Assembly: GCF_001017655.1 (NCBI RefSeq)
Contig: NZ_CP010904.1
Location: 1,950,001 to 1,982,000 of the forward strand
Direction: 5' to 3'
DNA: 32,000 bases
Origin: Kiritimatiella glycovorans
Lineage (GTDB): Bacteria > Verrucomicrobiota > Kiritimatiellia > Kiritimatiellales > Kiritimatiellaceae
The translations under genes and the position numbers were made by a program. Below, in pieces: positions 4,768 through 23,382 of this stretch. The notes below the pieces were generated by a model. That model was not told where the DNA came from. It did no database searches and was given only the letters and a program-made list of their open reading frames with translations. Each line of letters opens with the position of its first letter. The stretch's first letter is position 1.

Positions 4768-5022
4768 AAGACGCGCCTTTCAGGGCCTATCTGAGCGGCG
4801 GAGAACAGCCGCCCGTCTGAGCAAGATCTCCGCAGAGACCGAGCCCCTGACGGCATGATAATCGTCGAAATCGCAATCCCGATCTCTGATCGGACGATGA
4901 TCTGGAGGGAATCCGGGATTCCGTGCTCTTTATGGTTGAGACGGGGCGACAGACGGCGCGTTGCCAAAGAGGGCCCGCTCCCGCCTGCCGGCGGGCGGGT
5001 CTGGAGTAGAAAAGGCAGGGAG

Positions 5023-5058
5023 CGATTACGCGTACGAGTACGATTATGATGACGAACA
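5023..5058. repeat. Degenerate hexamer-periodic array (CGNNTA)x6
   Basis: cgatta cgcgta cgagta cgatta tgatga cgaaca. This is the same motif class as the arrays at 7341-7376, 15979-16014 and 22164-22193. Confidence 0.5.
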
Positions 5059-5191
5059 CGGGAACCACGGGTGGAAGGAGCAATCGCGCCCTTAAAGGGA
5101 ATCCCGCCGACCGTTTCAGCCACCAGGGTCCCGGTCGTTCCCTGAAATTGGACGTGGCTGGCTCCACCCCTATCACATAAGGAGGTATCCT

Positions 5192-5653
5192 ATGGAACAA
5201 TGCGCACCCTTATTCTCACTGGTTGCAGTGGCTCTGTCTCTTCTCTCGCTGCTCTGCACAACCGTCATGGCCATGGAGGCACACCGCAGCAGCAACCGCC
5301 GGGCCAATGCGAGTTCCCTGGTCCAAACCTGGCTGGATATGCCTGAGGGAGAGGGCGATCCACTGAAGTTCCACGACATCTCGGCGAAGGATCTCAAGGA
5401 AGCCGATGTAACCCGGTCTGAGCTCTGCTATGCGGTCGCCAGCCTTATGGCCGGCTGGATCGAATACGACGCGGCACCGTTCTGGAAACGCGAGAAGGTG
5501 AAACGAAGTCAATTCGAAGTCGGCAGCTACCGCGGTAATTTCGTCCGCTCAATAGCTATGAAAAAGGCCTGGAAACTGATCTACAAAAAAATACTCGACC
5601 GTAACGACCCCTACACAAAAGCGATCCTCTACATCGTCGGCGACCCCGCCTAA
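5192..5653 (+). CDS. Hypothetical secreted/membrane-anchored protein (153 aa)
   Basis: Strong SD (taaggaggt) lies 5 nt upstream of the ATG. The N-terminal hydrophobic signal-like segment is LFSLVAVALSLLSLLCTTVMA. I recognise no family. Confidence 0.6.
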   Translation: MEQCAPLFSLVAVALSLLSLLCTTVMAMEAHRSSNRRANASSLVQTWLDMPEGEGDPLKFHDISAKDLKEADVTRSELCYAVASLMAGWIEYDAAPFWKREKVKRSQFEVGSYRGNFVRSIAMKKAWKLIYKKILDRNDPYTKAILYIVGDPA

Positions 5654-5791
5654 CCCGGCGTCTGCCGGAACCGCCGGCAAAAAATACGGCGCCCCGCGCT
5701 TGCCCTGAACGGACCGGACGCTAGTATGCGGCTGAACGACCATACGAGAGGTACATCGACCGGCCGGCGCCGGAGGAAGCGAGATACCGTC

Positions 5792-6880
5792 ATGGGTTCG
5801 AACGGTTCCGGGATCGCGGCCCGCGTCGTGGAACCGCACGAGGACGAGGCCTGGGACGCCCTGGTGGCGTCCTCTCCCACCGCCAACCGCTTCCTGCGCA
5901 GCGACTGTCTCCGCATGCTGGAGGAGACCGACTCGCTGGGCATCCGCTTCCGGCGCGTGGGGGTGTTCGACGACGCCGGCGCGCTGCGCGGAGGCTGGGC
6001 TTTGCCGACCATGCAGCGCATGGGCATCCGGGCGTCGACCTACTTCGAATTCTTCTACGCCGGCCCCATGCTCGCCCCCGACCTCGAGACCGGCTCCGTC
6101 CACGTCTGCCGCGAACGACTGGACGTGCTGCACGCGCTGGCGCAGGCCCAGACCCGGGAGCTGCACCTGATCGAGGCCGAGGGGCATCCGCGCTTTGTCG
6201 ACGCGCGCGGGCTCTGGTACGCCGGGTTCGAGCTCCAGACCCTCTACACCCACATCTGGCATTTCGGAAACCCGGACGACGTCTTTATGAAGATGAACCG
6301 GGAGCGCCGAAGGCTGATCCGCCGCGCCGACGAGTCCCTCCGTTTCGGCCTGCTCACATCCGACGACGTGGCGGAGGGGTTCGTACCCCTCTACAAACGG
6401 CTGATGCAGAAGTTCGACTGGCTGCCGGGCGAGCAGTGGAGCCGCGACCTGCAGGACCGCCTGCAGTGGCTCTGGGACCACGACGTGGGCGCGGTCTACG
6501 GCGCGTGGGACGAAAACGGCGCGCTGTGCGGCGCGGTCATCGTCCTGGTGAGCGAGGAGGACCGCACGATCTACCTCTGGCGCTGCGGCTACGACACCTC
6601 CCGCAAAGGCAATACGATCGTCCCGGCCCTCTACTGGCATGCCGCACAGCACTGGCTGCAGCAGTGGGGCGAACCCCTGGCCTGCAACCTCGGCGGATCG
6701 CCGCTGATCAGCCTGGCGCAGTTCAAGGACTATCTCGGCGCCGACGTGGTCCCGCACCTCCGGCTCGTCTACCGCCCCCTCCGTCCCCGCCCGGTCCTGT
6801 GGCGACTCGGTCGCGGGATCAAGGAAACCAGCCGCCGCAGACTGACGCGTACGCGCGTCTCTCTGCTCAATGAAGAGTAA
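5792..6880 (+). CDS. FemAB-like/GNAT (Acetyltransf_6, BioF2/CelD-like) acyltransferase
   Basis: ORF 5726..6880; the internal ATG at 5792 (MGSNGSGIAARVVEPHEDEAWDALV) gives the typical family N-terminus. The C-terminal motif ...CNLGGSPLISLAQFKDYLGA matches the FDFGG...L..FK..FG signature of this family. Confidence 0.75.
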   Translation: MGSNGSGIAARVVEPHEDEAWDALVASSPTANRFLRSDCLRMLEETDSLGIRFRRVGVFDDAGALRGGWALPTMQRMGIRASTYFEFFYAGPMLAPDLETGSVHVCRERLDVLHALAQAQTRELHLIEAEGHPRFVDARGLWYAGFELQTLYTHIWHFGNPDDVFMKMNRERRRLIRRADESLRFGLLTSDDVAEGFVPLYKRLMQKFDWLPGEQWSRDLQDRLQWLWDHDVGAVYGAWDENGALCGAVIVLVSEEDRTIYLWRCGYDTSRKGNTIVPALYWHAAQHWLQQWGEPLACNLGGSPLISLAQFKDYLGADVVPHLRLVYRPLRPRPVLWRLGRGIKETSRRRLTRTRVSLLNEE

Positions 6881-6982
6881 GATTAAGGCCCGACACTCTT
6901 GCACGGCATCGGAATCCTCCACCGCCGCATCGCGCAGCGCCTCCGGCCGGAAGAAGGATCCGGCCGATCTCGAATAAAAAGG

Positions 6983-7495
6983 TTCTTCGCAGATTTTTGT
7001 GGTGGAGCCGTTCGGGGAAGAGGCGGGATGGGGATTCACCACAGCGGTCACAGAGGATGCCGGGGTCGGGATGGGAGACGACAAACGTTCGTAGCAGCGC
7101 CGCAAGGCCCGGAGGGCCAAGGCGCGTGGTATCGTTCGTAGTAGCGCCGCACGCCTGCCCCCCGGCAGGCCAGGCGCGTGAAAGATAACGGCCCTGGCCC
7201 TGCTTCGCAGGCCTGCGGGCCTACTACGAACTTTTTCCGCTGCGCGGACCTGCGGGCCTACTACGAACGTAAGAGAGCGCGCACGATTTCTTTGCCTGTG
7301 CTCTTCTTATTCCTCTTTTGGGATCGCGCCTTCGGCGCTCCGAGTACGCGTACGAGTACGAGTAAGAGTACGAATTATGTTCACCCCTTCATGCTCTTCA
7401 TGTCCTTCATGGTGAATTCCGTTCTCTCTCTCACTCCGATATCCCGCATCCCACCTTTCCCGGGAGCCCTTCCAAAAAAAAATCCAAGAATAACC
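6983..7495. repeat. Mosaic intergenic repeat element, copy A (about 0.5 kb, BIME/MITE-like)
   Basis: Collinear with 15623-16123 at roughly 90% identity by eye, including an identical about 60-nt block attcaccacagcggtcacagaggatgccggggtcgggatgggagacgac. It also shares the hairpin units, UUCG hairpin, hexamer array, CTTCATG nonamers and terminal arm with the TTCCCGGGAG palindrome. It lies between convergent genes, and no credible CDS is present. Confidence 0.8.
7133..7231. repeat. About 95-nt REP-like long hairpin unit (type H2), inserted inside a split H1 unit (7086-7269)
   Basis: Arms cgttcgtagtagcgccgca ... tgcgggcctactacgaac are reverse complements (12 bp perfect, then imperfect). The flanking sequences 7086-7128 and 7237-7269 are the two halves of the H1 unit that is intact at 15713-15805. 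Confidence 0.75.
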
Positions 7496-7512
7496 AATAA
7501 AAAAGGACGCGG

Positions 7513-8997
7513 CTATGCGGCTTTTCTGCGCTTCCAGAGGGTCAGGGCGACAAAGAACGCAGCCAGCAGGAGCAGGGTCAGGGCGATCGGGCGCCCGCCG
7601 AAAAAGGCGTAGCTCCCCTCCCCCAGCACCAGCGCGCGGCGCAGGTTGGTCTCGGCCATGCCTCCCAGAATCAGCGCCAGCAGGAACGGGGCGGCGGGAA
7701 ATCCCGTTTTGCGCATCCCGACGCCCAGGACGCCGAATCCGAGCGCGACCCAGCAATCGACCGGATTGGCGCGCAGGGCGTAGGCCCCCATAAGCGAGAG
7801 CAGCAGGATGCCGGCGTTCAGGAAACGGCGATCGATTTTGAGCGCGCCCATGACCAGCCGCGCGGTCGAGAGGGCGGTCACGAACACGGCCAGGTGGGCG
7901 AAGAGCATGATGGCCAGGATAGAATACGCCAGCGGACCGTGATCCTGGAACAGCAGCGGGCCGGGCTGGATGCCGTGCAGAATAAAGGCCCCGATCAGCA
8001 CGGCGGTCACCGAGTCGCCCGGAATGCCCAGCGAGAGCAGCGGGATCATGGCCCCGGAGGTGGCGGCGGTCTTGCCCGATTCCGCCGCGGCGATCCCCTT
8101 CGGCTCGCCGTCCCCGTAGCGGTCGTCCGGCTTGGACTGCTGATTCGCCGCGCTGTAACAGAGAAAGGCCGCGATATCCGCCCCGGCCCCGGGCGTGCTG
8201 CCCGTAAAGGTCCCGATCAGCGAGGCCTTGAGGTTCATCCATCCGCAGCGCTTCATGTCGCGCCCGTGCGGCAGCTCGAAGAGTTTCATCTTCTTTCCGG
8301 CCGGAAGTTGCGGTGCGCCGCGGTCCGGAGAAAAGACCTCGGCTATCGCAAAAAGCCCGATCAGTACCGGGATGAACGGCATGCCCTCCATCAGGCTGAC
8401 ACTTCCGAACAGGAAGCGCGGGTAGCCGGAGACGGGGTCCATGCCCACCGTCGCGCAGAGCAGTCCCGCCAGGGTGGCGATGGCCCCCTTGAGCAGTGAT
8501 TCGCCCGAGAGCGCGGTGATCAGCGAGAGCCCCAGCACGGCCAGCGCGAAGAACTCGGCCGGTCCGAAACTGAGCGCGAAGCGCGAGATCTGCGGCGTGA
8601 GGAAGATCAGCAGCAGCGTCCCGATCACCCCGCCGATCAGCGCCGACCAGGCGGACAGCGCCAGCGCCCGGCCGGCCTCGCCGCGCTGCATCATGGGATA
8701 GCCGTCCATCAGCGTGGCCGCCGAGGCGGGCGTCCCGGGGGTGCGGAAGAGGATCGCGGGCACGGTCCCGCCGTAGATCGCGCCGCAGTAGATGCCCACC
8801 AGCAGCGCGATGGCCGGCATGATGTCGAGTTCGAACGTGAACGGCACCAGCAGCGCGACCCCCATCGTGGCGGAGAGCCCCGGCACCGCGCCGACCAGCA
8901 TCCCGGAGACGACTCCCGCCAGCAGACAGATCCATACGGCGGGCACGAGCATCAGATCGAGCGAGCCTGTCATGATCTCCATCATCAGCCTATCCAT
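7513..8997 (-). CDS. tctA: Tripartite tricarboxylate transporter (TTT) large permease TctA
   Basis: 494-aa polytopic membrane protein with typical TctA N-terminus (..GVVSGMLVGAVPGLSATMGVALLVPFTF..). The start may be the ATG at 8985, which overlaps the tctB stop as TGATG. Confidence 0.9.
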   Translation of the reverse strand: MDRLMMEIMTGSLDLMLVPAVWICLLAGVVSGMLVGAVPGLSATMGVALLVPFTFELDIMPAIALLVGIYCGAIYGGTVPAILFRTPGTPASAATLMDGYPMMQRGEAGRALALSAWSALIGGVIGTLLLIFLTPQISRFALSFGPAEFFALAVLGLSLITALSGESLLKGAIATLAGLLCATVGMDPVSGYPRFLFGSVSLMEGMPFIPVLIGLFAIAEVFSPDRGAPQLPAGKKMKLFELPHGRDMKRCGWMNLKASLIGTFTGSTPGAGADIAAFLCYSAANQQSKPDDRYGDGEPKGIAAAESGKTAATSGAMIPLLSLGIPGDSVTAVLIGAFILHGIQPGPLLFQDHGPLAYSILAIMLFAHLAVFVTALSTARLVMGALKIDRRFLNAGILLLSLMGAYALRANPVDCWVALGFGVLGVGMRKTGFPAAPFLLALILGGMAETNLRRALVLGEGSYAFFGGRPIALTLLLLAAFFVALTLWKRRKAA

Positions 8998-14889: not shown

Positions 14890-15519
14890 TCAGGCCACGG
14901 CCGCCGCGGCGGCGGCCCGTTTCCCGATCTCCTCCCAGCGGTGTTCACGGATCAGGTCGCGCGGGGCGATCCACGATCCCCCGACCGCGCAGATCAGGGG
15001 GCTTTCCAGCCAGCCCGGCAGGTTGTCCTGGTTGAGCCCGCCCAGCGGGATGAACTGCAGGTCGAGGTGCTTGTACGGTCCGGCGGCCGATTTGAGATAC
15101 TTGAGTCCGCCGCAGGGTTCGGCCGGAAAGAACTTCAGCGTGCGGCACCCCAGCTCCACGGCCGCCTCAATCTCCGACGGGGTCATGACGCCCGGCGCGA
15201 ACGGGAGTTCCGCCGAGGCCGCTTCTTCCATGACGTCGCGGTTGAGTCCGGGAGCGACGGCAAAGGCCGCCCCCGCATCCCCGACCCGGCGCACCTGCTC
15301 CCGCGTAAGTACCGTACCCGCCCCCACCAGGATCTCAGGAACGCGTTCACGAATCACGGACATCGCCTCGAGCGCGGCCGGCGTGCGCAGCGTCAGCTCC
15401 ATCGCCCCCACCCCGCCCTCGAGCAGCGTCTCCGCCAGAGGGACCGCATCCGTCGCCTCGTCGATCACCAGCACCGCGATAATCCGCTGCCCGGCCAGCA
15501 GCTCCCTGAACCGATCCAT
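14890..15519 (-). CDS. eda: 2-dehydro-3-deoxyphosphogluconate (KDPG) aldolase
   Basis: 209 aa, MDRFRELLAGQRIIAVLVIDEATDAVPLAETLLEGGVGAMELTLRTPAALEAM... and ...TLKFFPAEPCGG..., the standard Eda pattern. SD aagggggg lies upstream. Confidence 0.9.
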   Translation of the reverse strand: MDRFRELLAGQRIIAVLVIDEATDAVPLAETLLEGGVGAMELTLRTPAALEAMSVIRERVPEILVGAGTVLTREQVRRVGDAGAAFAVAPGLNRDVMEEAASAELPFAPGVMTPSEIEAAVELGCRTLKFFPAEPCGGLKYLKSAAGPYKHLDLQFIPLGGLNQDNLPGWLESPLICAVGGSWIAPRDLIREHRWEEIGKRAAAAAAVA

Positions 15520-15595
15520 TTCACCCCCCTTATATACTATTGCATATTATATAACATACGAAAAGATAATATACACTGATAATGAATCGCGGCCG
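15520..15595 (-). promoter_or_regulatory. AT-rich promoter region of the eda-kdgK-isomerase-GH operon
   Basis: One of the few strongly AT-rich tracts in the window (cttatatactattgcatattatataacatacgaaaagataatatacactgataatg), immediately upstream of eda. On the minus strand it contains TATAAT- and TATATT-type hexamers. Confidence 0.45.
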
Positions 15596-15712
15596 ACGGA
15601 TCAAGTTGAAAAGGGGCTATGGGTGGATTTTTATGGAAGGGTTCCCGGGAAGAGAATGGGATTCACCACAGCGGTCACAGAGGATGCCGGGGTCGGGATG
15701 GGAGACGACAAC

Positions 15713-15805
15713 CGTTCGTAGTAGCGCCGCAAGGCCCGGAGGGCCAAGACGCGTGAAGATAACGGCCCTTGTCCGCTGCGCGGACCTGCGGGCCTACTAC
15801 GAGCG
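15713..15805. repeat. About 93-nt REP-like hairpin unit H1
   Basis: cgttcgtagtagcgccgca...tgcgggcctactacgagcg; the terminal 12 nt are near-perfect reverse complements with an imperfect extension. Confidence 0.75.
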
Positions 15806-15812
15806 TGAAGAA

Positions 15813-15907
15813 GTTCGTAGTAGCGCCGCACGCGCCCGAAGGGCCAAGGCGCGTGAAAGATAACGGCCCTGGCCCTGCTTCGCAGGCCTGCGGGCCTACT
15901 ACGAACG
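15813..15907. repeat. About 95-nt REP-like hairpin unit H2 (tandem to H1)
   Basis: gttcgtagtagcgccgcacgcgcccgaagggccaaggcgcgtgaaagataacggccctggccctgcttcgcaggcctgcgggcctactacgaacg; nearly identical to 7133-7231. Confidence 0.75.
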
Positions 15908-16183
15908 TAAGAGAGAACGCACGATCTCTTTGCCTGTGCTCTTCTCATTCATCTTTTGGGATCGCGCCTTCGGCGCTTCGAGTACGCGTACGAGTACGAG
16001 TGCGAGTACGAATGATGTTCACCCCTTCATGCTCTTCATGTCCTTCATGGTGAATCCCATTCTCTCTCCCCCTCCGATCTACCGCATCCCACCTTTCCCG
16101 GGAACCCTTCCATAAAGACCCACGAATGACCGATTTTTTACTAGGGTTTCAGGTCTCGGCCGACCTGCCCTTCCCGGCACCGC

Positions 16184-17911
16184 TCATTCAGCCGCGAACA
16201 GCGGCACGGCCCATTTTCCGAATTCGATCACCTCTCCGGCCGCGCATGTCTTCTGGTACAGCGAGCACAGGTTGGCGGGATAGGACGTGTGCTCGAAGAG
16301 GTTGAATTCGGACAGCGCGACTTTCTCGAAGCCCTGGGCTTCGAGCTTCGCCGACTGGCTTCCGCTCGGATTGCGGTCGGGCAAAGGCGTGGCGAAATAG
16401 ACCACCCCCGCCCGGGAAACGGTCACCGATTTATCGCCGTCGATCGGCACCTGCAGGAAGCGGGCTCCCTTGAGCGCCTCGGGACATTCGGACAGCGCGT
16501 AGCCGCGGTCCGTGAAGAGCTTCGCGCCCGGATCGAACGCGAGTACCTGCACTTCGCCCGCGGCGAACGCGCCGACGGGTGAGCGGCGCAGCGCCGCTCC
16601 GTCGGCGTTGTCGCGCGGCGGGTTTTCGTCCCGCTTCCACTGCGGCGTCGCCTCCCGGGCGCCCTGATGGCGCGGGTTGCGGGCCAGCCCCTTGTCGATC
16701 ACCTGCCGGAAGAGGGCCTTTCCGGAAACCGGCTCGCCGGCCGCGACGTCCTGCTCGGTGAAGGCCGCCATCAGGATTTCTTTCGCGTGGTGGCGCTCGC
16801 GGTCGTAGATCACGTAGATCGTGCCGTCGTCGGCCTGCGTGGCGTCCGGGTAGGAAACATGGGAGCGCTCGTCGATCATCAGGCCGCCGGTCCAGCTCTC
16901 TCCGTCGTCGTCGGACAGGAAGGCCATCAGGCGCTCGCGCCGCCCGGTTTTCTCGCCGGGTTCTCCGTGCTTGACGAGCAGCAGCTTACCGGACTGCAGA
17001 CGGCCGATGTAGAAGCGGGCGACGGTGTGCTCGATGTCGGAGGGCTCCATCGGGGTCCAGGTCTTTCCCTGGTCGCGGGAAAAGCTCTCGCCGATGCCGT
17101 AGTTCATGCGGCTGAGCAGCCACAGCGAACCGTCCTCGCGCTGCACCACCTGGTTCTCGTCGCAGTTACGCCCCTCGGGCATCGGCACATGGCCGCGGAA
17201 CTCGAAGGTCCTGCCCTTGTCGGTGGAAAACAGCGGCCGGAACGGCAGCCGTCCACCGCCCTCGGCACGGGTCAGCGTACCCACCGGCCAGACCCAGGTG
17301 CCGTCGGAGAGCACGGTCGGCTTGTTCATGTGGCCGTAGTCGGTGGCGATAAGCTGCGGCGAATCCCACTCCGGCGACGGGTCGCCGGGGTTATCGGTGG
17401 TGATCGCCCACAGCTGCATGCCGCGGCACTGGTTCTCGAGCACAAAGGTCCGGTAGGAACGGATATCGTCGAAGCGCTTTTTCATATCCGCGGCGTTATC
17501 AGTCGTATAGCGGATCGGCCAGATGCTGAAGGTGAACCACATGCGGTCGTCCGGATCCATCCAGAGCCCGGCATAGGAGGCCCGGAACGGCGGATCGATG
17601 ACCATCTGCGGATCGGACCACGTGCGGCCGCCGTCGCCGCTGGTGGCCAGCATCACGATATTGCTCCAGCCCTCGCCGGTGTCGCCCGAGTCCCACGTCG
17701 CCCACAGGCGTCCGTTGGGGGCGGCGCTGATCCCGAACGAGCAGACGAACATGCGGTTTTCCGCATCGTACTCCGGACCGGGATCGGTGACGACATAGGG
17801 CATATGCGGCCAGCGCGGGGCCTGCTCCGGGTCGCTGTAGTCGGCGGCCGGCAGCGACAGTGCGGACAGCAGGACGGTCAGGGCGGTCAGTTTTTTTATC
17901 GTCTTTTTCAT
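16184..17911 (-). CDS. Secreted BNR/Asp-box (sialidase-superfamily, GH33-like) beta-propeller protein with a C-terminal about 125-aa domain shared with the GH at 10648-12810
   Basis: Start at ATG 17911 (MKKTIKKLTALTVLLSALSLPA signal peptide; SD caggaga). There are four Asp-boxes: SGDGGRTWS, STDKGRTFE, SRDQGKTWT, SDDDGESWT. I did not see a FRIP motif, so true sialidase activity is not established. Confidence 0.85.
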   Translation of the reverse strand: MKKTIKKLTALTVLLSALSLPAADYSDPEQAPRWPHMPYVVTDPGPEYDAENRMFVCSFGISAAPNGRLWATWDSGDTGEGWSNIVMLATSGDGGRTWSDPQMVIDPPFRASYAGLWMDPDDRMWFTFSIWPIRYTTDNAADMKKRFDDIRSYRTFVLENQCRGMQLWAITTDNPGDPSPEWDSPQLIATDYGHMNKPTVLSDGTWVWPVGTLTRAEGGGRLPFRPLFSTDKGRTFEFRGHVPMPEGRNCDENQVVQREDGSLWLLSRMNYGIGESFSRDQGKTWTPMEPSDIEHTVARFYIGRLQSGKLLLVKHGEPGEKTGRRERLMAFLSDDDGESWTGGLMIDERSHVSYPDATQADDGTIYVIYDRERHHAKEILMAAFTEQDVAAGEPVSGKALFRQVIDKGLARNPRHQGAREATPQWKRDENPPRDNADGAALRRSPVGAFAAGEVQVLAFDPGAKLFTDRGYALSECPEALKGARFLQVPIDGDKSVTVSRAGVVYFATPLPDRNPSGSQSAKLEAQGFEKVALSEFNLFEHTSYPANLCSLYQKTCAAGEVIEFGKWAVPLFAAE

Positions 17912-21113: not shown

Positions 21114-21926
21114 GTGGTTCGTTATTGTATATATCGACCCCCGATGAACACGGAGCACTATTTTAAATCGGTCACCCGACTGCGCATCGCGCTGGAGGAG
21201 TTCGCGGCGGGCGAGATCATGCGCAGCGCGGCGTTAAAGAAGAAGGCCGCCGGGGCACTGAGCGCCCTGACGACCGATTTCAGACGCGCCCTGAAGGCGG
21301 AGGATTACGAGGCCTTCAATCGAACGGACTACCGGCTCCACCACACGCTGGTCGAACTCCCCGGCCTTCCGGTGCTGGTGGAGAACTGGGAGGCGGTATG
21401 GGAAGTCCACGCCGGGCTGCACCGCGACCGGCTCCGCGAGTACTGGCCGAATCTGCGGATCCTGGTGGAGGAGCAGGAATACCTGATCGAAGTCCTCTGC
21501 TCGTTTGATCCCGTAGCCATCCAGGACGCCATCCATAATCATCTGGAATCACTCTGGTTCCGTATTTACGAAGGCTATGCCGCTCCGCCGGCCGAACCCG
21601 AGAATCCGCTGCCGCGCGTACGGTCCTATCTCTCCTACCACCTGCACCGTCCGCTGGATCTCCGGGAGATCGCGCGCAACGTGGCCTTTACGAGCCCGGG
21701 ACACCTCTCCCGTCTGATGCGGCAGCAGTGCGGGGCGGGATTCAAGGACTACGTGCGCAATCTCCGCATGGAGAAAGGCGAGGAACTGCTGCGGCGAACC
21801 CGACTGCCCGTCAGGCAGATCGCCCGGAGGACCGGCTACCCCTCCGCCTCCCGCTTCTGCGAGTATTTCAAGCGCACGTACGGGATGACGCCGACGGCCT
21901 ACCGCAGGAAGCACCCCGACGCATGA
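21114..21926 (+). CDS. Transcriptional regulator: FCD-like (FadR C-terminal domain-like) sensor domain fused to a C-terminal AraC/XylS HTH
   Basis: The C-terminus RPLDLREIARNVAFTSPGHLSRLMRQQCGAGFKDYVRNLRMEKGEELLRRTRLPVRQIARRTGYPSASRFCEYFKRTYGMTPTAYRR is a canonical AraC double HTH. The N-terminal about 140 aa shows the FCD pattern (D..LHHTLVEL.G...L...W.....H.......EH..L...L...D...A......HL). The start is GTG at 21114 or ATG at 21144. It is divergent from the URO-D operon. Confidence 0.8.
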   Translation: MVRYCIYRPPMNTEHYFKSVTRLRIALEEFAAGEIMRSAALKKKAAGALSALTTDFRRALKAEDYEAFNRTDYRLHHTLVELPGLPVLVENWEAVWEVHAGLHRDRLREYWPNLRILVEEQEYLIEVLCSFDPVAIQDAIHNHLESLWFRIYEGYAAPPAEPENPLPRVRSYLSYHLHRPLDLREIARNVAFTSPGHLSRLMRQQCGAGFKDYVRNLRMEKGEELLRRTRLPVRQIARRTGYPSASRFCEYFKRTYGMTPTAYRRKHPDA

Positions 21927-22040
21927 CGCCGCCACCGACCCGCCTTTCCCGGCGGTCCCCTTTCCTGACTTCAACATTGCCCGAAGACGCGCTCGAATCC
22001 CCCTGTGAACATTGAAGTGAGTTTTGAATCAGGGTGTCCC

Positions 22041-22280
22041 GGCGGAAAAAAAGGGTTATTCGTGGATTTTTATGGAAGGGTTCCCGGGAAAGGTGGGATG
22101 CGGCAGATCGGAGGGGAGAGAGAACCATGAAGAACATGAAGGTTGGTTGAGGAGGGGGACATATACTCGTACTCGCACTCGTACGCGTACTCGGAGCGCC
22201 GAAGGCGCGATCCCACTCCCCCGATTCAAGGAATTCGAGTACGAGTACCGCTTCGCTGAGTACGAGTACGATATTCCCCC
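22041..22280. repeat. Truncated, inverted copy C of the mosaic repeat (terminal arm, CATGAAG module, inverted hexamer arrays around the UUCG-type hairpin)
   Basis: 22058-22125 matches the reverse complement of 16066-16131 (attcgtgg.tttatggaagggttcccgggaaaggtgggatgcgg.agatcggagg). Hexamers tactcg x5 lie at 22164-22193, hairpin gcgccgaaggcgc at 22196-22208, and the opposing array cgagtacgagtac...gagtacgagtacg at 22235-22272. The copy is flanked by the 9-bp direct repeat gggtgtccc (22032-22040 and 22281-22289). Confidence 0.7.
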
Positions 22281-22311
22281 GGGTGTCCCCATGTTGAACT
22301 CAGGCCCTTTG

Positions 22312-23382
22312 TCAGGCAGGAAGGTCCGACCTGTATGCGGCGATCCACCCGCCGCCGAGGACGCGGTCGCCGTCGTAGAAGACGGCGGCCTGGCCGGGGG
22401 TGAGGGCGAACTGCGGTTCGTCGAAGCGGACCTCGGCTTCCCCGCCTGCGTACTTCACCTGCGCGAACCCGCCGCGGTGGCGGTAGCGCGGCTGAACGCG
22501 GCATCGCAACGTTCCCTCCGCGGGCGGATCGACCAGCCAGTTGAGCGCGCGAACCGTGCACGAGGAATGGAGGAGGTGTGACCGGGGCGCGAGTGTGATC
22601 TCGTTTTTCGCGGGGTCGATATGCGCCACATGGCGGCGTTCACCGGTGGCGACCCCGATGCCGGTGCGCTGACCGAGGGTGTAGAGGTGATATCCACCGT
22701 GTTTTCCGATCACCGCCCCGGTCTCATCGCGGACGAGGCCCTCCCCAGTAAGATCGGGGTGCAGCGAAGCGACCAGCGCGCCCCGCGATACGTGATCGGT
22801 GAAACAGAGGTCCTGGCTCTCGCGGCTGGGCCGGACGGGCAGGCGGCGCCGTCTCGCTTCGGCCTTCACGTCCTCCTTATGCCACGCGCCCAGCGGGAAG
22901 CGGATCTTCGGAAGGCGGGGGCGGTCGATCCGGTGCAGGAAATACGACTGATCCTTGTGCGAATCCGCGCCGCGGAGCAGCCGGACCTCCCCTTTCCGAT
23001 CCTCGAGGCGGGCGTAATGACCCGTGGCCAGCAGCCCGCAGCCGTGTTCCGCGGCGGCGTCCATCAGGAACCCGAACTTCATGGTCTCATTGCAGACGAT
23101 GCAGGGGGAAGGCGTGCGGCCCGAGGCGTACTCGCGGGCGAACGGAAGAATCACGCTCGTGCGGAACCTCTCGCGCGCATCGACCGTGACGTGCCTGATG
23201 CCGAGGTGTTCACAGATCTCCTCCGCCCGGCGGGCGTCGTCCCCGCCCCCGCCGGGCGGATCGACAAACCGCGCCGTCAGGCCCAGTACCTCCCGGCCCT
23301 CGTCGAGCAGCAATGCGGCGGCCACAGCGCTGTCCGTCCCGCCGCTGAGTCCGATCGCGATGGTATGTCGGGGGTTGGACAA
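22312..23382 (-). CDS. mnmA: tRNA 2-thiouridine(34) synthase MnmA
   Basis: 356 aa. It has the PP-loop IAIGLSGGTDSAVAA, then ..TPSPCIVCNETMKFG.. and ..LLATGHYAR.., the canonical MnmA motifs. The start codon is TTG at 23382. Confidence 0.9.
   Translation of the reverse strand: MSNPRHTIAIGLSGGTDSAVAAALLLDEGREVLGLTARFVDPPGGGGDDARRAEEICEHLGIRHVTVDARERFRTSVILPFAREYASGRTPSPCIVCNETMKFGFLMDAAAEHGCGLLATGHYARLEDRKGEVRLLRGADSHKDQSYFLHRIDRPRLPKIRFPLGAWHKEDVKAEARRRRLPVRPSRESQDLCFTDHVSRGALVASLHPDLTGEGLVRDETGAVIGKHGGYHLYTLGQRTGIGVATGERRHVAHIDPAKNEITLAPRSHLLHSSCTVRALNWLVDPPAEGTLRCRVQPRYRHRGGFAQVKYAGGEAEVRFDEPQFALTPGQAAVFYDGDRVLGGGWIAAYRSDLPA

Follow-up and report, generated by a model that had tools for sequence, protein, structure and literature searches.

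Probable ISL3-derived MITEs among the mosaic intergenic repeats of Kiritimatiella glycovorans

We analyzed a window of 32,000 nt, corresponding to bases 1950001-1982000 of the genome of Kiritimatiella glycovorans L21-Fru-AB, which is a single contig of 2,949,723 bp with 63.3% G+C. Gene positions were taken from a codon-usage gene caller (2222 genes), in which stops are exact and starts approximate. Three mosaic repeats, copies A, B and C, neighbor genes whose identities were confirmed with Pfam: TctA (stop at 7513), a BNR-repeat protein (stop at 16184) and an AraC-type regulator (stop at 21926), respectively. Copies A and C sit in convergent gene pairs, copy A between an acetyltransferase-family gene (5726-6880) and tctA, and copy B occupies the spacer from the stop of the BNR gene to the start of a KDPG-aldolase gene (15519, - strand). 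A covariance-model scan of the window with Rfam, at the gathering score, found nothing in the repeats, the sole match being a tRNA gene:

326-399, - strand: tRNA gene

The original prediction, made from the window alone, described a single 'long arm' in each of the three copies. These arms are present, at 22054 (+), 16131 (-) and 7495 (-), but two arms of opposite direction had been overlooked, one at 6981 (+), the left end of copy A, and one at 15615 (+), the left end of copy B. Inverted arms thus delimit copies A and B. The two copies measure 515 nt (6981-7495) and 517 nt (15615-16131) and belong to a family of approximately 0.5 kb. Both are small and non-coding, in that the gene caller places no gene inside them. 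The features of the two copies are as follows, where T1 and T2 are arm types and T2 is the predicted long arm.

6973-6980, no strand: left 8-bp target-site duplication of copy A, AATAAAAA, adjoining the left terminal repeat and equal to 7496-7503
6981-7031, + strand: left arm of copy A, type T1 (nhmmer, 50.9 bits)
6981-7002, + strand: ISL3-type 22-nt terminal repeat GGTTCTTCGCAGATTTTTGTGG of that arm, 0 mismatches to the pattern
7087-7269, no strand: REP-like long hairpin units (GTTCGTAGTAG...CTACTACGAAC) nested in copy A (repeat families D2, D4 and D7; inverted pairs I10 and I17)
7319-7443, no strand: GAGTAC-hexamer hairpin core and CATGAAG 9-mer module of copy A, forming the inverted pair I2 with 22164-22215 (96% complementary)
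7444-7495, - strand: right arm of copy A, type T2, with the terminal inverted repeat at 7474-7495
7496-7503, no strand: right 8-bp target-site duplication of copy A, AATAAAAA, 8/8 identical to 6973-6980
15615-15665, + strand: left arm of copy B, degenerate T2, with the terminal repeat at 15615-15636 (3 mismatches), facing the start of the KDPG-aldolase gene
15714-15908, no strand: two tandem REP-like hairpin units in copy B (D2, D7 and D9; spacing 99-102; from the alignment)
16085-16131, - strand: right arm of copy B, T2, with the terminal repeat at 16110-16131

Alignment of seven end-bounded copies of the 0.5-kb family reveals common ends, between which inner modules are gained or lost as whole blocks. 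The inner mosaic is composed of GTAG-tagged REP-like hairpins, GAGTAC-hexamer hairpins and CATGAAG 9-mers. The GAGTAC core and the CATGAAG module of copy A occur 102 and 43 times in the genome, respectively; a module scan gave 64-102 copies of the inner modules, and the two hairpin half-sites are present in 131 and 84 copies (control for half-sites, 0). The inner modules outnumber the ends and must therefore spread in another way too. A block of approximately 42 nt, GGATTCACCACAGCGGTCACAGAGGATGCCGGGGTCGGGATG, accompanies the left arms of copies A and B (7032-7073 and 15658-15700) and is missing from five others of the 0.5-kb family. The short direct repeat CGGGATGG stands on either side of the block, an arrangement suggestive of recombination at a micro-repeat as the cause of its gain or loss. 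Elsewhere in the window, at 5010-5060, a piece of the GAGTAC-hexamer module, CGATTACGCGTACGAGTACGATTATGATGACGAA, stands alone upstream of a gene with its start at 5228. De novo repeat detection also yielded long hexamer microsatellites, (GAGTCA)n, for example at genome positions 504000-505000, and consensus sequences of further dispersed families: GAGACCTGAAACCTGAG, IS66- and IS256-like elements and an element of 150 nt with TTCTCATTATGGC at its ends.

The arm begins with a 22-nt terminal inverted repeat, GGTTMTTCGYRGATTTTTRTGG, of the type found in the ISL3 family of insertion sequences. The genome contains 103 matches to this 22-mer with at most four mismatches, and the reversed genome, used as control, contains none. 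A genome search with nhmmer retrieved 55 arms of three or more subtypes; the outer 22 nt are the part common to these subtypes, and at least seven different subterminal sequences come after them. ISL3 ends that start with GGCTCTTCG, together with 8-nt duplications and a derived MITE, have been described (PMC11448079), and the ISMac21-related MITE of Methanosarcina acetivorans is another ISL3-related MITE (PMC3852290). The arms have the terminal repeats expected of an ISL3-derived MITE, with starts of the form GGCTCTT/GGTTCTT.

Seven ISL3 transposase genes (PF01610) reside in the K. glycovorans genome, and the resident transposase has a length of 412 aa. A resident ISL3 element with four copies has the ends GGTTCTTTCTCGAATTTTGTGG and GGTTCTTTCGCTAAAATTGTGG; the former is identical to the 22-mer of the repeats at 18 of the 22 positions, and the other end at 13. 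An intact ISL3 element with exactly the ends of the arm is absent from this genome. Within the order, the 22-mer with at most two mismatches is present in 42 of the 81 sampled genomes, the controls giving no match, and two inverted copies of it frequently lie 240-290 nt from each other. Near-exact ends that adjoin ISL3 transposase genes were seen only in one relative of the same order (genome G008), where GGTTCTACGTAGATTTTTATGG directly follows the 3' end of the transposase genes, which are decayed, at two loci. Exact-pattern scans of public genomes other than that of K. glycovorans gave no match to the arm.

A/T runs had been predicted at the outer boundaries of all three copies; they are there, and the trend extends over the genome, with a mean of 5.47 A/T bases in the outer 8-mers of the ends compared to 3.44 of 8 in the intergenic background (p = 1.6e-28). 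This preference for A/T-rich targets is common to the ends and to most resident ISL3 copies, all seven of which are flanked by perfect 8-bp duplications that are mostly A/T-rich. The six direct repeats that had been proposed to flank copies A, B and C are all present in the sequence. That of copy A is a real duplication, in the form of the 8-mer AATAAAAA directly adjoining both ends, but those of B and C are not duplications. Among 14 simple inverted end pairs of the K. glycovorans genome, perfect 8-bp duplications flank three (GGAAACAT, CCCTTTGT and, in copy A, AATAAAAA), one more pair matches at 7 of 8 positions and one has a 10-bp direct repeat. Four pairs with at least 7/8 identity were reached in only 1 of 2000 shuffles of the partners. 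Only about a third of the paired ends retain a recognizable duplication, and many ends are solitary. Several short end pairs in the relatives likewise have perfect, A/T-rich 8-bp duplications (TTTTTATC, ATAAATGA and TTTGTTTC). The 8-bp duplications expected of an ISL3-derived MITE are thus found at copy A, at other pairs in the genome and in relatives, and not at copy B, the flanks of which (TGAAAAGG and GATTTTTT) match at 0 of 8 positions. The repeat cggccgac, which had been put forward for copy B, lies 17 and 25 nt outside the ends rather than next to them, and an 8-mer common to two 45-nt flanks arises by chance in 4.8% of trials.

Copy C is built differently. It spans 21964-22304 as a 341-nt composite, in which an ISL3-type arm is embedded between modules that end in termini of a second type:

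21958-21963, no strand: CCCTTT adjoining the left end of copy C, equal to CCCTTT at 22305-22310 at the right end
21964-22053, + strand: left module of copy C, starting with the second-type terminus CCTGACTTCAACATTG and ending with GGGTGTCCCGGCGGAAAAAAAG; conserved, 12-13 copies
22054-22113, + strand: ISL3-type T2 arm embedded in copy C, with the terminal repeat at 22054-22075; the same junction is present in 9 copies
22164-22304, - strand: GAGTAC hairpin module of copy C, ending with the second-type terminus CCTGAGTTCAACATGG (22289-22304, - strand)

The repeat gggtgtccc was rejected as a duplication of copy C because both its copies are internal to conserved multi-copy modules (...GAATCAGGGTGTCCCGGCGGAAAAAA, 13 copies; ...ATTCCCCCGGGTGTCCCCATGTKGAACTCAGG, approximately 30 copies). 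An 'empty' junction form of the copy C modules does not occur in the genome, and we found no close relative able to show an empty site. The ends of the second type have the consensus CCTGAsTTCMACATkG (also written CCTGAsTTCAACATkG and CCTGAGTTCMACATGG), with 64 matches at no more than two mismatches compared to two in the control; 37 exact ends are present in K. glycovorans, whereas 80 relatives from its order have none. An exact-pattern scan of public genomes, from which K. glycovorans itself was excluded, gave no match either. Five full copies of the C type resemble one another closely, and a further two have the left part in common with them; all seven lie between convergent genes.

Other elements of the copy C type have long direct repeats of unique sequence adjoining their ends, with lengths of 29, ~53, 82, ~100, 34 and 23 bp (five to six other copies). 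The elements concerned are located at the following genome positions:

895759-896148: C-type element flanked by a long direct repeat
658220-658816: C-type element flanked by a long direct repeat
994597-995139: C-type element flanked by a long direct repeat
1224822-1225383: C-type element flanked by a long direct repeat
400167-400594: C-type element flanked by a long direct repeat
2806605-2807006: C-type element flanked by a long direct repeat

Such long flanking repeats are found at 7 of 64 second-type ends; the corresponding numbers are 1 of 99 for ISL3-type ends and 1 of 400 for random sites between genes. Several of them take in the last codons and the stop of the neighboring gene, so that the element could land on gene ends or within tight convergent pairs while the genes stay unbroken. 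Copy C itself has no long direct repeat, only the CCCTTT that occurs twice; this pair is possibly a short duplication, weak on its own. Copy C very probably belongs to a second, lineage-specific element type. We speculate, tentatively, that insertions of this type duplicate long, variable stretches of unique target sequence. The mechanism could be wide staggered cutting as in the IS1634 family, for which we know of no mechanistic model, or one that has not yet been described. A pair of second-type ends enclosing a transposase was not found in the genome (relaxed pairs at 0.7-4 kb were noise, with 500 matches and 442 in the control). Elements with DDE_Tnp_1 transposases were considered as partners and rejected, as the ends of the three multi-copy groups that we checked are unrelated.

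According to the original prediction, the long arm follows stop codons in a fixed orientation. This fails genome-wide. With four left ends of resident ISL3 copies dropped and five intragenic ends set aside, 53 ends have a stop as their outer neighbor and 41 have a start (stops would be expected at a share of 0.476; p = 0.10). The 18 copies of the T2 long arm are distributed over convergent (10), divergent (2) and co-directional (6) spacers, and only two of the six co-directional copies follow the rule; eleven modules were compared for strand bias in co-directional spacers, and it is absent from every one (p > 0.14 in each case). The left arm of copy B, which faces a gene start, breaks the rule within the window itself. 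The genes around copies A and C are convergent and put a stop on the outer side whatever the orientation, and the rule is therefore automatic in two of the three cases from which it was drawn. Proximity to stop codons, in turn, is borne out by the distances over the whole genome: the repeats hug stops, with a median gap of 21 nt compared to 75 nt to starts (p = 4e-16). There are 401 repeat islands covering 105.5 kb, and repeats are present in 46% of convergent, 30-31% of co-directional and 29% of divergent spacers.

The proximity to stops, the enrichment in convergent spacers and the abundance of hairpins would agree with a selected, strand-specific function at RNA 3' ends, be it as terminator, RNA stabilizer or 3'UTR-derived small RNA. 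We nevertheless consider such a function very improbable. The modules have no strand bias in co-directional spacers, almost three in ten divergent spacers contain repeats as well, the Rfam scan matched no family, and a hairpin followed by a T-run is absent in and beside copies A, B and C (0 sites in 6800-7600, 15450-16250 and 21850-22400). The position bias is as expected from purifying selection against promoter disruption. Orientation-specific insertion into the U-tracts of terminators, which had been offered as the other reading, agrees with the A/T-rich targets and with a few terminator-like flanks, such as that of the end at genome position 1261866, which is preceded by GGCGAAAACGCC and a run of eight T. 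It is scarcely credible, however, given that A-run flanks are as frequent as T-run flanks, that orientation relative to the strand of the T-run is largely random across copies, that stops and starts are both common as outer neighbors, and that none of the three window sites is terminator-like. Moreover, the arms point inward at both ends of the elements, which contradicts orientation-specific insertion and a strand-specific 3'-end function alike.

The prediction had also drawn an analogy with the REP/BIME elements of enterobacteria, which is apt for the inner GTAG hairpins but not for the arm. Spread of the repeats as REP/BIME-type elements by a RAYT (Y1/HUH) transposase would be in line with the inner hairpins, in which GTAG stands beside a G+C-rich palindrome and which form head-to-head pairs and tandem arrays with the half-site numbers given above. 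The genome also has RAYT-like Y1 genes, two of them identical and a third only a fragment:

Genome 2429853-2430656: RAYT-like Y1 gene (267 aa), with its own flanking REP GATGTAGCGGGGGTCAGACCCGCAGAAG (7 copies)
Genome 2856029-2856832: identical RAYT-like Y1 gene (267 aa), with the same flanking REP

One of the Y1 genes directly adjoins a CRISPR array, the repeat of which, GTTCTCCCCACACGCGTGGGGATGATCC, is present in 40 copies genome-wide. However, the REP that flanks the Y1 genes (GTAGCGGGGGTCAGACCCGC, 7 copies) is a different one, and neither the inner hairpins nor the arm are found there; neither of the two Y1 genes is flanked by the modules described here, as would be expected of RAYT-mobilized elements. 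Short GTAG-tagged imperfect palindromes are present in the inner hairpin units and not in the arm. The arm is not palindromic, and its ISL3-type sequence and 8-bp duplications are features that RAYT-moved REPs lack. We therefore regard mobilization by RAYT as an improbable account of these repeats.

In our reading, the repeats belong to an ordinary class of elements and do not act as a 3'-end signal oriented by genes. The long arm very probably constitutes the terminal inverted repeat and subterminal sequence of non-autonomous, ISL3-derived MITEs. In the model that we propose, an ISL3-type DDE transposase, supplied in trans, would bind the 22-nt ends GGTTMTTCGYRGATTTTTRTGG, and the element would be inserted at A/T-rich 8-bp targets, the eight bases being duplicated. 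Since A/T-rich targets are mostly intergenic in a genome of 63% G+C, A/T runs would be left at the outer boundaries. The elements pile into one another between genes, with inner modules coming and going as whole blocks, and copy C, a composite of the second element type, carries half an ISL3-type element inside and has multiplied as a unit. The apparent orientation rule is then a matter of geometry, with arms that point inward at both ends and survival of the elements mainly downstream of genes. The ends, the duplications, the composition of the targets, the distribution and the link to ISL3 transposase genes were observed directly, whereas the identity of the mobilizing transposase and the present mobility of any copy are inferred.

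The species description reports many transposases and genome plasticity (PMC5148204), which nested MITEs help to account for. The type species of the phylum Kiritimatiellota has no complete genome other than this one, in which the dispersed repeats, at approximately 105 kb, make up 3.6% of the sequence and more than a quarter of the intergenic DNA. Recognizing them as nested MITEs keeps them from being annotated as genes, regulatory RNAs or terminators, and the 22-nt end provides a simple marker, with related elements found across the order. What merits the attention of specialists is the second element type and its long target duplications.

Several known systems resemble these repeats. The BIME/REP elements and REPINs of enterobacteria and pseudomonads consist of GTAG-tagged palindromes and are associated with RAYT. 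The K. glycovorans repeats are similarly mosaic, intergenic and hairpin-rich, with GTAG inner units, inverted pairs and tandem arrays, but the arm is a transposon end with target duplications, and the RAYT-like genes stand beside a different REP. BOX elements of Streptococcus pneumoniae are composed of boxA, boxB in n copies and boxC. They share the modular design, with fixed modules at the ends and a variable number of units in the middle, whereas the ends in K. glycovorans are inverted repeats of a known insertion-sequence family and are accompanied by 8-bp duplications. For the C-type copies the nearest precedent is the IS1634 family, in which IS1549 and IS1634 generate direct repeats that are long and vary in size, from 8 to 514 bp (PMC2266710). 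The long, variable direct repeats flanking C-type copies are alike, but in K. glycovorans no transposase with CCTGAG-type ends was found, and copy C has only its 6-bp repeat; the C type is a candidate member of this family only. Compared to ISL3-family MITEs, of which the Microcystis aeruginosa element has a length of 187 nt and GGCTCTTCG ends (PMC11448079), the K. glycovorans elements are longer (~0.5 kb), modules of other repeats form a mosaic inside them, a single 22-nt end is combined with several types of subterminal arm, and the genome is without an exact autonomous partner. In common with these MITEs they have GG(C/T)TCTTCG starts and 8-bp duplications, are non-coding and shorter than 600 bp, and carry ends that match those of ISL3 transposase-bearing elements (PMC11448079, PMC3852290).
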